A stretch of 64,000 bases of DNA. Origin: Raja brachyura (lineage: Eukaryota). Numbering within the stretch: the first letter of the stretch is position 1; every line of letters begins with the position of its first letter. Below, one piece after another: positions 16,291 through 45,409 of this stretch. The DNA is taken from assembly GCA_963514005.1 (NCBI GenBank), contig OY740796.1:15438001-15502000 (forward strand), given 5' to 3'. A program made the translations under genes and the position numbers. The notes beneath the pieces were generated by a model. The model made no database searches, had not been told where the DNA came from, and saw only the letters and a list, made by a program, of their open reading frames with translations.

Positions 16291-17113
16291 GCATAGCCGT
16301 GAGTCAACTGCCAGCCCACCAGCCGCGAGTGAGTGAGCTGCCAGCACAACAGGTTTGAGTGACTGAGCCGCCGGCCCAAAAATCCATTTGGCCCATGATG
16401 TCCATACTAGCCCTCTTTCAGCCCACAACACCCAATCAAGCGCTCCAGAAAGCCCCCACCCCCCGCCCCATTGGCCACCAATATTGGAATTGATGGAGGG
16501 GTGGAATATTGCGTTGGGGGACAAGCCCTCCCATGTGATCGTCCATCATTATATCCCTCGTGTGCATTGAATGATGATACTTTATTGTCACGTACCTAGG
16601 TACAGTAAAATTGTTTCTGCATAGAATGTGCACAAGAGTAGTCACAATGGTGAGGCCAAAGTTACAAAAAGTTCCCTTCATGGTGGGTATTCCTCTGTTT
16701 GCCAATCTGAATGAAGATCCATGCCCTTGATGTACATATGACAGACAGTTGTTAGAGCTGGAAGAAACAGGAATTCAGCAAAACATTTAGAAGCTCAGTG
16801 ATGCAGCTGCATGTGAATGATCGCTGCTTTCTAAGTAATGCCTATCAGATGGATTTTTATTTTCATGTATTATGAACTGTTGTAATATTATCGTCACTGT
16901 GTCCTATATTTCACTATTTTGTATAAACACATTGGAGTAATTGACAAGGATGTATCGCCAAAAGAAATATTAGACTTTATTTTAACAATAGTGCATCTAT
17001 CTTATTTTGAATGGAGTACCTTAGTGAAGTGACAATTATTCTTTAATAATTGTATTATTTTGTTGGTATAAATCTGGGAGCAGAGTTTTGACCTGACTGA
17101 GCATCTAAGGAGT

Positions 17114-17242
17114 CTTCTTCTTGCATATGGCCTAAAGTTGTAGGACAACTTGTTCTATTTGATCTTATTTGATTGTGCACGGCAAGTTGATTGGATTTGT
17201 CGAAACAGGGCGAACCACGTTAAGGTTACAATCTTCCACCCA
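17114..17242 (-). mobile_element. 129-bp SINE-like retroposon with (GAA)n tail and 11-bp TSD
   Basis: Perfect TSD ATCTAAGGAGT at 17103-17113 and 17243-17253; minus strand ends ...GCAAGAAGAAG. Confidence 0.85.
17189..17242 (-). ncRNA. HDV/CPEB3-like self-cleaving ribozyme fold (degenerate copy)
   Basis: Minus strand TGGGTGG-AA-GATTGTA-ACC-TTAACGT-GGT-TCGCCCT-GT-TTCG-A-CAAA-TCCAATC gives P1, P2, P3, L3, P3', P1', a minimal P4, J4/2 and P2' in the correct nested order. Confidence 0.72.
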
Positions 17243-19004
17243 ATCTAAGGAGTGAGATGACCATGACCAGAACAACAATGAAACTAAGAAGAATACCTTT
17301 TCCATTTTTTAAGATATCTTACCACACAGATGTCTGAGTGGTTTTAAAGAAGAAAGACAAAGTTCATTGAAGTGTTCAAGCCACATGAACAATGGTTTAT
17401 CATGCTAATGCCGTGCCAATCCAATTTGAAGAAGTGATATTCTGTAGAATTAATCACATGAGCACTTTTAAGATAGACTGGTGTTATTATGTCTGTTGGC
17501 CTGGTATGCATTCACACAGCACTTTCTTAGAATAGGCCCTTTAGCCCACAATATCTGTGTGGAACATGATGCCAAGTTAAACTAATCTCATTTGTCTGCA
17601 CATGATCCTTATCCCTCCTTTCCCTACATATTCATGTGCCGATCCAAAAGCTTCTTGAACACTGCTATCGTATCATATTCGTGAATTTTATTTGAACCTG
17701 AAAAAGGTTTGAGGCAGAAATCAAAGATGCACTTTAAACCCCTACCAATATTAAACGCACACACGCTTTACATCCATTTAATGCTTATTACCATGTAAGT
17801 GGTTGGCTGTCTTGTGAACTGAGGTTTTTGTGTCCTACTCTGAAGAAGCAATTTATTCTTTACAATATGATTTCTTGAACAGTGTATACTTCTACTTTGC
17901 TTCTGGGGGGTGGGAAACATTGCCAGGTGGGTTTTCCATCATTTTGCTCCAAGCAATTATGCAGAAATGTCTTTGTGCGGTCTACAAAAGGGACGTGACA
18001 ACCTGAGACGAAACTTGTAATTTTTGCAGCAAAGTAGTAATTGCAAGAGTCCCTCGTGCATGGCGTGATTACCTTTTCGTTTTCTCATAAAAAAAGCAGG
18101 ACAACAAGCATAATTGTTAGTTTTTATAAAGTGTAGAGGTGCGACACATCTTTTTAAGGTACTCTGGTCTTCATTGTTAGTGGATTCAATGTACAAATGT
18201 ACTGTAAACTCAATGGCTGAATATAGTGGTTGAAGAATCTAAAGTGCCAATGGAGATGGATAGTTCCATCATATTTGTAGCAACACAGTTAACAGGTATT
18301 GTTGATTCACCGCTGTTCACTTTCTAGTTCTGGTCTATTGAAGGCAATGCATTAGCATGGTGTCGTTATAACAACAAGTTAGATCCAATTTATGGCCACA
18401 TCTTTAATAGAATTGCTGCTGACATTCTGCTGTGTGCAAAACCCATTGGACTGATCCATAATTTACCCCAGAACTGCTCTGTGGCTACATTTGTTACAGA
18501 AAAAATCACCTTCCTTATCTTAACCTGCTACTTGTTAACAGAAATGTGTAGTACCGAAGCCACTATTCAAATAAGTTGGATGCAGAGGACTTGTTCTTGC
18601 ACCCTTTCATTTGAGTTGGGTGGTGACCCCCTCAGATGAAGTTGTGCTGAAGTCTGACTCTCCTGGATAATCCTGACAGACTTTAATTACAGACAAAGCT
18701 TTCAAATCAAATATCGTTAAAACTAAAAAATTGAACTAAAACATTAAAAACTCAAGACCTTAAATAATTAAAAGTACAAAGGTAAGAAATAAATTACTTA
18801 TTAAAAAAGTGACGGCTCCGTTTTGCCTGCTAATCTATGGGCCTAGAACAATCACATCCATTTGAAATGAAAGGATTCTGATGTTATGGCATATCTGAAT
18901 AAATTGTACCTGATTTGGAATTAGAGTGGACATAGGTTATGTCCCATTGTGGAATCAGTAGACATTGGTTCGGCTTGGACATCTGTCATTGGCAACGCAC
19001 AGGT

Positions 19005-26200: not shown

Positions 26201-26816
26201 TCCTTTGATTACCTTTTTAATTTCTTCCATATAATTCTCACTTGCCTCTGATGTTTGAGGTCCTAATTCACAAATGCTAGGCTACTTTTGCAATGCAGTG
26301 CTGATGGAGATGCCATCATTTAAATGAAGTGCGAAATTGAAGCTCTTGGATATGCGTATTTGAAAAAGAGCAGGTCTATTTCCCTGATGTTTAACCTTCA
26401 GCAACATCATGGCAACAGAACTAATCCGTAGCTGATGGATAGTTGCAGAAATTGAGTAGAACATTTCTACATGATAGTGGATGTCTACAGTTGTATGTGT
26501 AGTGCCATGAAATTGTAAAATTATGTTTAATTACAAGTCTTTGTGATATCGTCAATGATTAAGGTAGATTTTGGTGTCCTGTGATACCACATTTCCATTG
26601 GTAAAGAATTTTAAAATATTGGGAGTATGTTCCATATGATATTAGGGTTAGCCAAATGCCACTTGAAGACTACCAAGCATTTTGGGTAATTTATAAAAGA
26701 TCCTAAATATACAAGTCCTTACAACAAGTTTTAAATAACAGGTATATGTAAACAAGAAAATGATCCCAATTGTTTATTCCTGATCTAATTGAATTATTTT
26801 GTTTATCCATTTTCAG

Positions 26817-27455
26817 ATGGGATTCACAGCGTGACAGCACAGTGTGTGCTGAGAGTAATTGTCATTACAGAAGAAATGTTGATCAACAGTATTACGGTGC
26901 GCCTAGAAAACATGTCTCAGGAACGCTTTCTGTCTCCATCATTGAACCGCTTTGTGGAGGGTCTGGCAGCAGTCTTGTCTGCCCCCCAGGAGGACATCTT
27001 TGTTTTCAACATACAAAATGACACAGATGTCAGCGGGAGCATTCTGAATGTCAGTTTTTCTGCTCTGGTTCCTGGTGGAAGCCAGAGCCAGTTCTTCTCC
27101 TCAGAGGAGCTTCAAGAACAGCTATATATGAGTCGGATGCAGCTGACTTCAGTCTCTATGCTGGAGGTGCTCCCTTTTGATGACAATGTCTGCCTGCGGG
27201 AACCCTGTGAAAACTACATGAAATGCATCTCGGTGCTGAAGTTTGACAGCTCCTCTACATTCATTGCTTCAGGCTCCATGCTTTTCCGGTCCATCCATCC
27301 CATCACTGGGCTTCGCTGTCGTTGTCCACCAGGATTTACTGGAGATTACTGTGAGACAGAGATCAACCTTTGTTACTCAAATCCCTGCCAGAATTCTGGA
27401 GTATGTAGTCGCAGAGAGGGTGGTTACACATGCATTTGTGGAGAAGAGTTCACAG
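26817..27455 (+). CDS. CELSR3: CELSR3-like internal coding exon (exon 2 equivalent): end of the cadherin region, membrane-proximal region, first EGF repeats
   Basis: Acceptor ttttcag|AT, donor ACAG|gttagt, 639 nt. Translation DGIHSVTAQCVLRV...SSEELQEQLY...LPFDDNVCLREPCENYMKC...CRCPPGFTGDYCETEINLCYSNPC...RREGGYTC is clearly CELSR. TAQCVLRV, SSEELQEQLY and DDNVCL fit CELSR3 better than CELSR1/2 (from recalled sequences). Confidence 0.95.
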
Positions 27456-30400
27456 GTTAGTAAAACCAGAATTATTTTGCACCACAGTGAAGTAATCTTG
27501 TCTTTGTTTTAAAACCAATTTATAAAAAATATGCTTGTATAAATTTAATCTGTGCAATCTTCCTAAAACGCACATTTCGTTCAAAGAAATGGCTAGATGA
27601 ATGACAGCTGCTATGCACCACCATAAAAGAACCAAAACCTAATGGTACTGCCAGACATGGCATTATTTCAAATGCCTCGTTTCTTTCCAGCTATCCAGTT
27701 GGTATCAAGATGCGGTCAAGCCAGCCAGTCATCCTTTCCTTAAAAAAGACCAGGAGCAGCTGCTCACCAAATCCTCAGCATAATCACAGTGAAGGTTTTG
27801 TCGTACACCCAGTGATGGAGTATATGAATAGTATCAAGAATCTTAATATCATGTTATAATTCCACGGTGATCAGTATGAGTCAGGCTTCAACTTCTGGCA
27901 TTTGGAGATCTGTGATGTGCAATAGGCATTACACCGTAAAGCAATTATTCTTCTCAACAAGTATTGATGCTTACTTGTACTATGATCAGCATTTGATTTT
28001 GACCACATTTGCTTCCTGATGAGGCTTTAATGATGTCCAGTGTAGGCTCTACGTTAATTTAGTTTCAGTCCTTCTGTAGTAAAAAATGCACAAGCTCACG
28101 TCTACAAACCTTTACATTATTTCAGTTTTATTCCTGCAAGAAATGTCCGCCCAACATTTTTGATGCTTTGGATTTTTAATTATTTTGAAAATTCAATTTT
28201 GGCAGTGGATGTTAGGTCCATCCAATCATTTTTTTCCAGAGTTAAATAACTGCAATAACATTTATAGTTACATTTATTGACCGTCTGCATTGCAGATCCC
28301 TGCAGACTGTCTGAGATTAAATTCTTTGCTTAATGCGTGCAAAGGAAACAAACCACCTCTGGCTTATTTTGAACTTGCCCACTGCAGCCCCACTCCTTTA
28401 ATATGGGCCAAAAGGTCCATTATAGATTGGATCTGGATTACCCGTGTTTCATAATGAGCCCTCAAGAGAAATAAATAATTCCACTTCCACCTTCTCCATT
28501 TCTTGATTAAGTTCTTAGTGCAAAGCCAGGTTGAGTTCATGTATTGGAAGTGGGGGTTAGAGCTTACTGCAGCCCTATTAATTTCAGTTATCAAATGAAG
28601 CTTAGCACAGGAGTTACAGGGTCGCTAATTAGGTGTTTCTCAGTTCAAACACAAACTAAAGAATTCTGCACACAAAATGGAAATGATTTTTGGATATTTT
28701 TTACTACTTTTTAAAATTAAATTAAAACATTTCTGCCTCTGTAAGCTCGGTGCCGTGTTTCTCAATGGAATACTATGGTCATTTGCTCCCATTTTCTTAC
28801 TGAAGAATTGAGTAACAATTTATTTGAAAATAATTTATTATTGCTATTTAGGGTACAGTGACAGATGGTTATTTGTTTTGTAACTCTTGCTCTGCAATAA
28901 TCATAAGTTGAATGTAGTAAGTGAACATATTTTTTGTGATGTTAAGCTATCTGGATAGAATACGTGTAGAGAATTGAGCTTAATGTAGACAAATGTATGT
29001 TGATTAAAGAAATCAGCAGCCATGTGCACTTGCTAAAGTGGCCCCAATTTCAAATGGTGTCTGTTTGTTATAGGATGTTTCTTTAGATGCTAGAAGACTG
29101 TTGCATGTCACAACGCTGACATCAGCAGAGATAATCTGTAAAGTAGAATCCTTAAGGCATTGGGCGACATAGAGAGCAAAAGTTAATCAAAATGAAAACT
29201 CCTCATTGAATCCGTTGGTCGTGGAAATTGTCCTAGAAATTTAAAAACCATAAGCTGTCATTCAAAAGTCATGTGGGTACACACGATAGACCAGAATACT
29301 TGCAACAGCCAGGTAAAACCTACTGGCTGCTGTGCATGCCAGTAACCAGTGCTCTCAGGAAAGGACTGCAGGAGGAACTCTGATCAACTTAGTTATTGGT
29401 TGGCTGACCAACAGTCCTCAAGGCCTCTGTTATCGTCGAACGTGATTAAATGTTTGCATTTACCAACACTTTTCATTAATGCTCTATTGTAATCCCTCTG
29501 TAAGGAGATGTTATCTTATTTAAGTTTGGTGACTGTGTAATACTTCACATCCTTTAAGCATTTCCAATCTCATTATTTAATATCCTGATCTGTCTCCCTG
29601 CTAAATACTGGATAAAAGTAATAATTTAAATTTAATGCCGTGGTTTTATTTTATCAATCTTTAATGGGCCAATTTCCATCATTACTTTTGCATTTTATTT
29701 TGTTTATTAATTTAATTTCAGCATTCCTCCTTGTTTTCCTACATTTATCCTTCTCCCATCTCATCGTTTTTGTTGTTATCATCCTTTCTTCTGTTTTCCG
29801 TGTAGACTAAATGCTCGGTAAGTGCCTCTTAACCAAACATTTTCCCATATGTCACTTTGTGGCATCCCATTAGTGTTTATCTTTTTCTTGTTTTAATGTA
29901 ATGTATTTTTTCTGGACTCTTTTGTGTCATTTTAAACGTTTCCCATGGGTGCTGTACATCGTTATTTGCCAATATCATTACACCTTAGCTTTACAAGATT
30001 CTGTTTTCAGCTCCCAAAATTGCCTTTTATTTCGGTTTTCATCAATCTAATTCCTTCTCAAATATTGTTGTGCATTTTATTATGATGACTATTGCTTTGA
30101 TGCTATCCTGCTTTCACTTCCCCATCAATCCAGCTACTCCCTTTCCCAATACTGTATCCTGTTGGGAGCAGACTCCATTCTCGAAATAGCTCTTCAAAAA
30201 TGGTATCTTTCCATGTATTTCAAAAACACTTTGAACAAATAAAAAAAATCCAGTTGTTTTGAAACTCAGCCTCTGAACTCTCGGTGGCATCCTCAAAAGG
30301 AGCTTTTCACTTTTCCAGGCGGTGTAGCTAGTGAAATGAACCAAAACAATTGGATATTTTCCTCTCGAAATTCCTCTCCAGCCACCTTAAATGGCCTATC

Positions 30401-33660: not shown

Positions 33661-34156
33661 GTACCACTGAGGAGATAACCTCTCAATGTCTTTCCAAAAC
33701 CACGTCAAGCATTTCATTGAGCCACTGACTGCTAGCAGTTCTATAGGATACAACCGTGCAAGCTTAGCCAAATGTGGAAGTATGAAGAAGGCTGGAGGAT
33801 ACAACCTACCACTACTTTGAACATTACAATACGTGACCCACCACTCACATTGAACATTGTGATGATGCTGAGGAGATGGGATGGTTGTACAACATTGATC
33901 CCACTATTCTGAATGAGGTCACTGCCCCTGTGGTTAAAGACACAATTTGATTTATTTCACTTCAATGTTTTTAAATACTTATTTGTATTTTAGGGTGTTT
34001 CCAATGTTATTTTTTCTAAGTTATTTAAATTGATTTACACAGTTTGCAATAGTAATATTTAAAAATAGTTGAAAAGGTTTTGAAAATGGTAAGCTCCATG
34101 AAAGCTAGCATGATTCTACAGGGTAGATACTTGACTCCATGGCTTGGATCTGTCTC

Positions 34157-34200
34157 ATGGGACGCCTCACGAATTTGCGTGTTGTCCTTGCGCAGGGGCC

Positions 34201-34233
<33 letters not shown>

Positions 34234-34248
34234 CACATGTGCTGCCGA
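34157..34248 (-). pseudogene. U6 snRNA pseudogene (about nt 10-101)
   Basis: Reverse complement matches U6 (TCGGCAGCACAT.T.CTAAAATTGGAACGATACAGAGAAGATTAGCATGGCCCCTGCGCAAGG..) with 6 substitutions; lacks the first 9 nt and the oligo-T end. Confidence 0.92.
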
Positions 34249-34989
34249 CGTACAGAAAGCTGCCTCATCTGGCCCGCTGCTTTCAGAAATAGTCAGCCGG
34301 TGTAACACTACAGGGGCCAAGTTGGGCAGTGAGTTGGGTCCAATGTGATCTGGTCTCTCATAGTCATAACACTACAACTTTCCCAAACAGAGGCAGCACC
34401 TAAAAGAGCTGTTGCAATGCAGTTCCAGGGACCTAAGGTTTAACCCTGTTCTCAAATGCATTATATGAAGAGTTTGCACATTCGTGGGATTCTTTCAAAT
34501 GGTTCAGTTTCTTTCTTCATGCCAAAGATGTAGCTTTTTAAAATACATTTCTCCTGTGGTTGGCAGGTGATAGAATAGTTGGAAGTGGAGAGAAAAGGTA
34601 ACAGGGGAACACAATACTATTATTTCAGTGTATTTAAGTGTGGTTGAAAGTCAAATATCATTCAGTAGTGCAGCCAAATCATGTTAATTTATTTGAATGT
34701 TGTCTCACCTCAAATGATCAACCGTCCATTAGCGCAACAATGATTCAATTCACAATGAATGTCATTAACTGAATTTATATGGAACAGTAATGTTTATCAA
34801 TGTATTGAAAATAAACTGGTTCTGAGACACACTGTGGAGAAGCATTTGTCTTCCATTCATAAGATGGCAACAAGTGTTTTCACGTTTTGGCTTTGTTGCT
34901 TTAAGTATGATTGTGACATAGATTAATAGGCAGTCTGCTTCTTCTTGCATTTGAGGCAGCAGAAGTCTGCAGCAGGGTGATGCCATCCG

Positions 34990-43797: not shown

Positions 43798-45409
43798 CAG
43801 TGGCTTGCAAAAGTTTTCATACCTCTTGAACTTTTCCACATTTTGTCACGTTACAACCACAAACGTAAATGCATTTTATTGGGATTTTATGTGATAGACC
43901 AACACAAAGTGGGGCATAATTGTGAAGTGGAAGGAAAATGATACAGGGTTTTCAAATGTTTTTACAAATAAAAAACTGAAATGTGTGGCGTGCAAAAGTA
44001 TTCAGCCCCCTTTACTCTGATACCCCTAAATAAAATCCAGTGCAACCAATTGCCTTCAGAAGTCACCTAATTAGTAAATAGAGTCCACTTGTGTGTAATC
44101 TAATTTCGGTATAAATACAGCTGTTCTGTGAAGGCCTCAGAGGTTTGTTAGAGAACATTAGTGAACAAACAGCATCATGAAGCCCAAGGAACACACCAGA
44201 CAGGTCAGGGATAAAGTTGTGGAGAAGTTTAAAGCAGGGTTAGGTTATAAAAAAATGTCCCAAGCTTTGAACATCTCACGAAGCACTGTTCAATCCATCA
44301 TCCGAAAATGGAAAGAGTATGGCACAACTGCAAACCTACCAAGACATGGCCGTCCACCTAAACTGACAGGCCGGACAAGGAAAGCATTGATCAGAGAAGC
44401 AGCCAAGGGGCCCATGGTAACTGGAGGAGCTGCAGAGATCCACAGCTCAGGTGGGAGAATCTGTCCACAGGACAATTATTAGTCGTGCACTCCACAAATC
44501 GGGCCTTTATGGAAGAGTGGCAAGAAGAAAGCCATTGTTGAAACAAAGCCATAAGAAGTCCCGTTTGCAGTTTGCCACAAGCCATGTGGGGGACAGCAAA
44601 CATGTGGAGGAAGGTGCTCTGGTCTGATGAGACCAAAATTGAAGTTTTTGGCCTAAATGCAAAACGCTATGTGTGACGGAAAACTAACACTGCACATCAC
44701 CCTGAACACACCATCCCCACTGTGAAACATGGTGGTGGCAGCATCATGCTGTGGGGATGCTTTTCTTCAGCAGGGACAGGGAAGTTGGTCAGAGTTGATG
44801 GGAAGATGGATGGAGCCAAATACAGGGCAATCTTGGAAGAAAACCTGTTAGAGTCTGCAAAGGACTTGAGACTGGGGCGGAAGTTCACCTTACAGCAGGA
44901 CAACGACCATAAACATACAGCCAGAGCTACAATGGAATGGTTTAGATCAAAGCATATTCATGTGTTAGAATGGCCCAGTCAAAGTCCAGACCTAAATCCA
45001 ATTGAGAATCTCTGGCAAGACTTGAAAATTGCTGTTCACAGACGCTCTTCATCAACCTCACTGAGCTTGAGCTATTTTGCAAAGAAGAATGGGCAAATTT
45101 TTCAGTCTCTAGATGTGCAAAGCTGGTAGAGACATACACCAAAAGACTTGCAGCTGTAATTGCAGCAAAAGGTGGTTCTACAAAGTATTGACTTAGGGGG
45201 GCTGAATACTTTGGCACGCCACACTTTTCAGTTTTATATTTGTAATAAAATTTGGAAACCATGTATCATTTTCCTTCCACTTCACAATTATGCACCACTT
45301 TGTGTTGGTCTATCACATAAAATCCCAATAAAATACATTTACGTTTGTGGTGGTAACGTGACAAAATGTGGAAAAGTTCAAGGAGTATGAAAACCTTTGC
45401 AAGCCACTG
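43798..45409 (+). mobile_element. Full-length Tc1-family (IR/DR type) DNA transposon, 1612 bp
   Basis: TA|CAGTGGCTTGCAAA...TTTGCAAGCCACTG|TA. TIRs of about 213 bp (13 mismatches counted by eye), with inner direct repeat TGCAAAAGTATTCAGCCCCC. Confidence 0.97.
44177..45191 (+). pseudogene. Disrupted Tc1 DD34E transposase
   Basis: Paired-like HTH and GRPPK, WSDETK, QQDND and [11 protein letters not shown] (D to E spacing 34). Frameshifts near 44420 and 45055, in-frame TGA at 44674-44676, natural stop at 45189-45191. Confidence 0.95.

Follow-up and report, generated by a model that had tools for sequence, protein, structure and literature searches.

A 138-nt LINE-derived retroposon family with a predicted minimal HDV-like ribozyme head in the genome of Raja brachyura

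In the 64,000 nucleotides of Raja brachyura DNA that we analysed (contig OY740796.1, positions 15,438,001 to 15,502,000; the window, below), an exact 11-bp direct repeat at 17103-17113 and 17243-17253 flanks 129 bp on the minus strand. An earlier note, made from the letters alone, had taken the repeat for a perfect target-site duplication (TSD) and the insert for a SINE with an independent ribozyme head of the HDV family. The locus raises three questions: whether the insert belongs to a mobile family, whether its head is plausible as a ribozyme, and where that head came from. The duplication is there as described, and so are the first 54 nt with the pairings that the note wrote for them.

Reading along the minus strand, on which every part of the element lies, the 5' TSD copy (17243..17253) is followed by the 54-nt HDV-like head (positions 1-54, 17189..17242), which is decayed in this copy. 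Positions 1-77 (17166..17242) are common to the 5' end of the parent LINE described below. Next comes a junction region (17149..17165) in which, judged by eye, the end of the 5' part appears to be duplicated in short tandem, and then the portion common to the parent's 3' end (17114..17148), which holds the last codons, the stop and a short 3' UTR. Compared with the full family length of 138 nt, the window copy is missing 9 nt here, near its 3' end. The tail (17114-17122), read by the note as (GAA)3, is (AAG)3 and does not hold three complete GAA units. The 3' TSD copy (17103..17113) closes the insertion.

The insertion had been called antisense to a host gene, and this is right. A plus-strand cadherin-repeat frame of 1467 aa stops about 4.8 kb before the start of the window, and the first exon that we found after it is inside the ORF at 26789..27460, which matches CELSR1. 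Both are on the plus strand, and the element is in the intron preceding this exon of a CELSR gene and antisense to it. The window also contains a U6 snRNA-like copy (34151-34253, minus strand, 84 bits with Rfam), which has no terminal T run and is likely a retrocopy, and what we take to be a Tc1/mariner transposase-like fragment (44677-45129, plus strand).

The element belongs to a high-copy family, as had been proposed. In the 2.7-Gb genome, a first look gave 2469 candidates for the window element. Exact patterns found 5531 heads and 3274 tails, and a pattern with four CpGs left free had 9935 matches. Calibrated on sampled copies, the pattern counts correspond to 16,600-20,800 copies, while a count of five full copies over 380 kb of sequence taken without selection scales up to about 35,000, though with a wide margin of error. 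From these we estimate the family at about 17,000-35,000 copies. The pattern counts are slightly inflated by a tandem segmental array (G000:C1:14.57-14.96 Mb) in which two element copies are repeated about 13 times. In sequencing runs under eight organism labels, covered as contigs only and with runs of few words left out, an intact copy was present at 0.86-1.00 of the sampled words.

The 5' ends are well defined. We chose 30 loci by nothing but their tail: 25 extend into the first 6 nt (later insertions split two of these), one starts at position 13 and four are truncated. TSDs were found for 71/96 full copies, compared with 9/284 shuffled pairings, and their length peaks at 11-12 bp. The duplication abuts G1 in 48/71 copies and is 1-2 nt off in 16, which places 64/71 within 2 nt; in 7 it is further away. 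Many loci, TSDs and the parent's tail together show that copies were retrotransposed independently. The end of the element thus coincides with the predicted cleavage site, which lies directly 5' of position 1, as the note had expected. Ends clustered at G1 fit cleavage there, and they fit a precise transcription start equally well. The 23/71 TSDs that do not abut G1 count against cleavage as the source of every 5' end.

We took the predicted fold from the column majority of 101 near-full copies, including 30 chosen by likeness to the window copy and 30 loci chosen by head pattern, and checked it with a descriptor. P1 has seven pairs with a G1•U wobble, between positions 1-7 (17236..17242) and 30-36 (17207..17213). 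After a 2-nt J1/2, the 5' strand of P2 (10-16, 17227..17233) forms seven pairs with positions 48-54 (17189..17195). P3 has three pairs and closes the loop L3, UUCACGU (P3-L3-P3, 17-29, 17214..17226). G37-U38, the P1.1 partner, and a 5-nt linker in place of P4 occupy 17200..17206, and J4/2 (17196..17199) consists of the predicted catalytic C44, at 17199, followed by N-A-A. A46 and A47 are present in 98-99 of the 101 copies. Since part of this sample was selected on the head, we also looked at 47 copies that were not: G1 is present in 43/47 and C44 in 45/47, the fold is strictly intact in 13/47, and 27/47 pass a looser test. The majority therefore restores G1, L3 UUCACGU, a full P2 and the catalytic C, as the note had predicted it should.

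Intact copies have 7/7 pairs in P1, 7/7 in P2 and 3/3 in P3, together with C22-G37 as P1.1, and as modelled they form a nested double pseudoknot in the order P1, P2, P3, P1.1. The putative catalytic C is first in J4/2, is followed by a conserved A, and is present in the parent as well. If the 13/47 fraction holds for the family, thousands of ribozymes may sit in this genome.

The window copy is not one of them. Against the family majority its head has G1U, C15U, C22A, C30U and G49C, plus the variants G8A and G45A, and it fails the descriptor. The note had suspected inactivating changes at position 1, in L3 and in J4/2. The first two are damaging: G1U changes the first nucleotide, and C22A in L3 (17214..17226) costs the copy its P1.1 pair. 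To these we add the break that C15U and G49C make in P2. The J4/2 G>A change, however, is probably tolerated, because the parent has U at this place and A is over-represented genome-wide. We regard the window copy as an old and likely inactive insertion.

How far the fold can be trusted depends on how it was detected. The descriptor is our own, and it matched 13/16 natural heads tried (from the element, from the parent, Vingi D, from four other Vingi-type families and from an RTE family) and failed on 3. It matches an intact natural copy of the element and none of 5000 dinucleotide shuffles of the same copy (0/5000). In its strict form it had 2 matches in 760 kb of randomly chosen sequence, searched on both strands, and both were copies of the family. 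The note had also suggested a check with the Rfam HDV and CPEB3 models, and here the outcome was negative: they did not match the window copy, the copy L006 or the parent head L398 even at E<=5, and neither the element nor the parent head reached the gathering threshold of the HDV, CPEB3 or HDV-F-prausnitzii model. An Rfam search of the window gave nothing HDV-like at the window copy; the only match was the U6 copy. The fold was judged by descriptor and comparison. With ViennaRNA, which cannot model a pseudoknot, the isolated head folds to P1 and P3. The minimum-energy fold of the whole 138-nt RNA keeps P2 and loses P1 and P3, and the 3' 84 nt fold on themselves.

One could read the fold as a relic of a ribozyme that was catalytic in ancestral LINEs, now a P4-less form that does not cleave and is kept only as a protective or protein-binding 5' structure. 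The lack of an Rfam match and the low count of strictly intact heads would fit this, and some well-folded trypanosomatid SIDER heads are inactive in vitro (PMC4035085; here and below, PMC numbers and preprints stand for the part of each source that was available). On the other hand, P4-less HDV-like ribozymes are active in silkmoth R2 (PMC3774820) and among the theta ribozymes (preprint), and C44 and L3 are constant between the parent and all subfamilies seen. We find a relic improbable and strongly expect that intact heads self-cleave.

Another reading is that the element is a SINE transcribed by Pol III from a degenerate promoter of the tRNA type, in which the UUCGA linker serves as a B box. 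The linker does include TTCGA, the core of such a box, and a stretch of four T is absent from the element. However, the best A-box and B-box matches (3 and 2 mismatches) are no better than those in shuffles, a tRNA scan of the element found no tRNA, and the same bases are present in the parent LINE. We consider this reading very improbable, and we rejected the tRNA, 5S and 7SL classes of SINE because Rfam, the tRNA scan and the box search found no small-RNA head and no A or B boxes. To this extent the note's statement that there is no Pol III promoter is supported. To say that there is no promoter at all would go too far, as the head of the related L1Tc acts as a ribozyme and as an internal promoter (PMC3383444).

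The head was explained by the parent. A scan with PF14529 led to a Vingi-type LINE, and the endonuclease of this LINE led to several related families, including Vingi D, a 3.1-kb LINE in the same genome. The note had proposed looking for a LINE that shares the head or the tail, and Vingi D carries both ends and has the same tail. In 21 distinct LINE copies, family positions 1-77 stand directly before a 5' UTR and an APE-RT frame, six LINE 3' ends bear family positions ~95-138, and one copy (L404) has the two at a distance of 3.1 kb. In a contig of a run from another organism, too, the head is joined to a LINE body. Compared with the 47 element copies, Vingi D has on average 65 of 77 matches at the 5' end and 27 of 35 at the 3' end. 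The averages fall to 24 of 80 (5') and 9 of 60 (3') with Vingi A, the next Vingi-type family, and to 16 of 80 (5') and 10 of 65 (3') with RTE. From these comparisons, the element is almost certainly an internally deleted, bipartite, non-autonomous LINE, made of the 5' 77 nt and the 3' ~40 nt of one parent. It is not a SINE that acquired a ribozyme independently, as the minimal P4-less head is already present on the autonomous parent. Longer deleted derivatives exist too (L395, of ~470 bp, and L033).

The note had named R2 and RTE retrotransposons as bearers of HDV-like ribozymes; the parent is neither of these. The first candidate partner to be found, through PF20049, was the RTE family, which has an (AAG)n tail and an HDV-like head of its own. 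We rejected it, and with it the class of RTE derivatives, because only a 19-nt head core and the AAG tail are common to the two. Vingi A has the same fold layout but low sequence identity, and was rejected as the parent and kept as a possible mobiliser. For one head-bearing LINE copy (L357) we considered a chance fusion of a truncated element with a LINE; the 21 distinct loci rule this out. The parent is rare, with 44 matches in the genome. Two negative-letter patterns aimed at it gave 49 and 91 matches, nearly all of them family copies with indels or truncations. These patterns were blind to the parent because it has the same short linker and differs from the element just after position 70.

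Across the seven parent fragments scanned, PF14529 and PF00078 matched and RNase H did not, and the translation has a C-terminal Cys/His motif. All translated copies are broken, and the single ORF was read from fragments. The ESM Atlas returned only hypothetical-protein clusters for the C-terminal piece. On its length, its domains, the published definition and an RT motif that resembles that of Vingi, we think that the parent likely belongs to the Vingi clade. Its organisation is that of the definition, a compact single-ORF LINE with APE and RT and without RNase H (PMC13708176). The supplement of Kojima 2018 has a Vingi 5' end of the type that starts with G and has UUCACGU (PMC5786205).

The 5' and 3' UTRs of the parent contain complementary 8-nt stretches (family positions 60-69 and 113-123). 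In the main subfamily, A61G extends this pairing to 10-11 bp and closes the 3' part into one stem. The complementarity may reflect an interaction between the 5' and 3' ends. In several Vingi-type copies (L357:681-724, L354 and L401), a short piece of the 5' end is inverted or duplicated, a pattern that twin priming or template jumping would produce.

We looked at how the head varies between the parent and the subfamilies. Beyond CpG decay at 41-42, the only changes are at 8, in J1/2, at 32, where U-A becomes U•G, and at 45, immediately 3' of the catalytic C, and all three are structure-neutral. The remaining 84 nt vary at about 8 sites. The CpG of C44 and G45 provides a further comparison. Genome pattern counts are 2761 intact, 367 with C44>T and 856 with G45>A, while the CpG in L3 has 5531 intact and decays evenly (524 vs 461). 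C44>T is thus 0.13 of intact and not rarer than L3 decay (0.08-0.09). It seems that the tolerated G45>A was re-amplified and the catalytic C44>T was not, although the excess of A45 could come from one master copy.

Covariation was another of the note's suggestions. It is present across LINE families and absent within this family, where we saw no double-sided pair changes. Between the element and the Vingi A head, three P1 pairs and three P2 pairs have changed on both sides, one has changed on a single side and none is broken. Between the element and the RTE head, six P1 pairs and one P2 pair have changed on both sides, and two pairs are lost, the outer one of P3 and one at an end of P2. At P1.1 the element has C-G, RTE has G-C and Vingi B has U-A. 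In all, the heads of five other LINE families in this genome retain the fold by way of double-sided changes. Because double-sided changes keep the pairing and not the sequence, they fit an RNA structure, and covariation among the LINE families of this genome supports the predicted stems.

Where the element has a 5-nt linker, the other LINE heads in the genome have 36-95 nt. HDV-like heads with P4 regions of 36-46 nt are found in at least four further Vingi-type families, A (L322, L323, L329), B (L341, L351), E (L367) and F (L368-L371), which have (AAG)n tails as well. The Rfam HDV or CPEB3 models match only two of these heads, those in L367 and L371, and do so below threshold; the heads of the element, Vingi D, Vingi A, Vingi B and RTE are not matched. 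Full-length copies of the RTE family (L221-L241, L142, L145) begin exactly at the HDV-like fold, with C1 and a 95-nt P4 region. They have (AAG)n tails and 11-12 bp TSDs, and 13/21 head-bearing loci are internally deleted derivatives. In the RTE head the P1.1 pair is swapped and P3 has A·A as its outer pair; alternatively, P1 could be lengthened by U8-A29. Inserted in a Vingi A copy (L331:~675-820) is another RTE-like 5' head, the second one seen; its L3 is UUGUCGU, and it points to a further ribozyme-headed family.

These other families bear on which protein moved the element. It could come from Vingi D and still have been amplified mainly by the protein of another LINE, either Vingi A or the GAA-tailed RTE. 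Vingi A is far more abundant (5313 first-look candidates), and its 7-nt terminal motif, followed by (AAG)n, is one base from the end of the element. The RTE family has the same kind of tail, the same TSD length and deleted derivatives of its own, and the Vingi D parent is rare. The (AAG)n tail is thus shared with two LINE families more abundant than the parent, and this counts against the parent. However, the ~40-nt 3' end is common only to the Vingi D parent, and the head divergences of the element and the parent from the column majority are similar (7% vs 4%). We judge amplification mainly by another LINE to be unlikely, and think that the Vingi D parent is probably the mobiliser.

The more serious question is whether the head serves chiefly as an internal Pol II promoter, or combines promoter and ribozyme, as Pr77 does in L1Tc and NARTc, in which case host transcripts would not be needed. 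In L1Tc and NARTc the first 77 nt do the work of both (PMC3383444), and Ingi is the sister clade of Vingi (PMC13708176). The element retains 77 nt of the parent's 5' end, which is 23 more than the fold needs, and Kojima 2018 considers bipartite LINEs to be Pol II transcribed. An internal promoter would likewise give a precise 5' end. The double-sided changes across LINE families fit RNA structure, but a second role as a promoter is compatible with them. We think that a promoter-driven element is rather unlikely, and we slightly favour release from host transcripts as the main route.

Our preferred explanation is that the family is a deletion derivative of a Vingi-type LINE whose head self-cleaves before G1 and whose RNA is likely copied by the parent's RT. 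Taken as a whole, we consider this fairly likely. In detail, transcription would likely start at a host promoter or a neighbouring one and read through a source copy, and the head would then fold into the nested double pseudoknot. C44 would catalyse a cut just before G1 and so give the exact 5' end, and the compact 5' fold may also protect the end of the RNA. The parent protein would bind the 3' end with its (AAG)n, and target-primed reverse transcription would insert the copy with an 11-12 bp TSD.

Ribozyme-headed deleted LINEs are already known as a general kind. The closest are NARTc/RIME and SIDER of trypanosomatids, short deleted derivatives of L1Tc/Ingi, a sister clade, with an HDV-like cut 5' of +1 (Pr77/L1TcRz; PMC3383444, PMC4035085; the ribozymes of L1Tc, NARTc and SIDER are also treated in PMC6765202). 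Our element differs from these in its vertebrate host, its 138-bp length, its 54-nt P4-less head and its (AAG)n tail. The Vingi-1_EE derivatives of hedgehog and SINE2-1_ACar are bipartite 5' plus 3' Vingi derivatives as well (Kojima 2018). Drosophila R2 SIDEs combine a 5' HDV-like ribozyme with the parent's 3' end and are released from a host co-transcript (PMC3414825), but they are rare and confined to 28S rDNA, whereas our family has tens of thousands of dispersed copies and an APE-type parent. Bov-A, RTESINE1/2, WALLSI3 and RTE-N1/N2_Lch show the same bipartite architecture in vertebrates (Kojima 2018). Their parent is RTE, unlike ours, which gave a shorter unit and a ribozyme without a long P4.

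The fold has relatives too. The drz-Mtgn, theta, silkmoth R2 and abalone ribozymes lack P4, and the abalone ribozyme has a 5-nt replacement (PMC3774820, theta preprint). Theta ribozymes are phage elements beside tRNAs, which our element is not, and silkmoth R2 has a J1/2 of 216-498 nt (PMC3774820), compared with 2 nt in a whole fold of 54 nt here. In the Rfam consensus line, mammalian CPEB3 (RF00622) shares L3 UUCACGU, a G-rich P1 start and, with one subfamily, CGAAU at J4/2. It differs in that our element has other stems, no P4 and no Rfam match, and is mobile and multicopy where CPEB3 is a single intronic locus. A literature search, mostly of open-access papers, found no paper on this family, none that links Vingi to a ribozyme and none that links CPEB3 to Vingi. 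The family is not described in the available parts of PMC4494074, PMC3747384, PMC5753468, PMC13708176 and two 2026 preprints, although it may already be catalogued in Repbase or Dfam. What looks new is a ribozyme head on Vingi LINEs, its 54-nt P4-less form in a vertebrate, and the copy number.

The likeness to CPEB3 goes further in other Vingi elements. By eye, the 5' end of the crocodilian Vingi-2_Gav in the supplement of PMC5786205 agrees with the Rfam CPEB3 consensus at 34/36 positions, counted over Vingi bases 2-37, and again in the final 10 bases given there. The same supplement has SINE2-1_AMi, the middle of which is also nearly identical to this consensus. The human genome contains Vingi remnants (X12_LINE; PMC5753468). 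The Vingi-2_Gav match suggests that a Vingi 5' end was exapted as the CPEB3 ribozyme. In its widest form, the idea is that the Vingi clade starts with CPEB3-type HDV-like ribozymes, that our family is a 138-nt minimal retroposon spreading thousands of intact ribozymes, and that the mammalian CPEB3 ribozyme was exapted from an old Vingi insertion, of which it is the 5' end. We hold it tentatively, with slightly less than even confidence.

If the head cleaves, 5' ribozymes extend to the Vingi clade, and the element is a very compact design for a mobile RNA, with 54 nt for the 5' end and ~40 nt for copying. Such a design is relevant to the Vingi-based gene-insertion systems in development (PMC13708176). 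Sense copies would then cut host pre-mRNAs, and with possibly several thousand intact ribozymes in the genome, an effect on host introns can be tested by orientation bias. The Vingi match, for its part, gives a concrete and checkable origin for the mammalian CPEB3 ribozyme.
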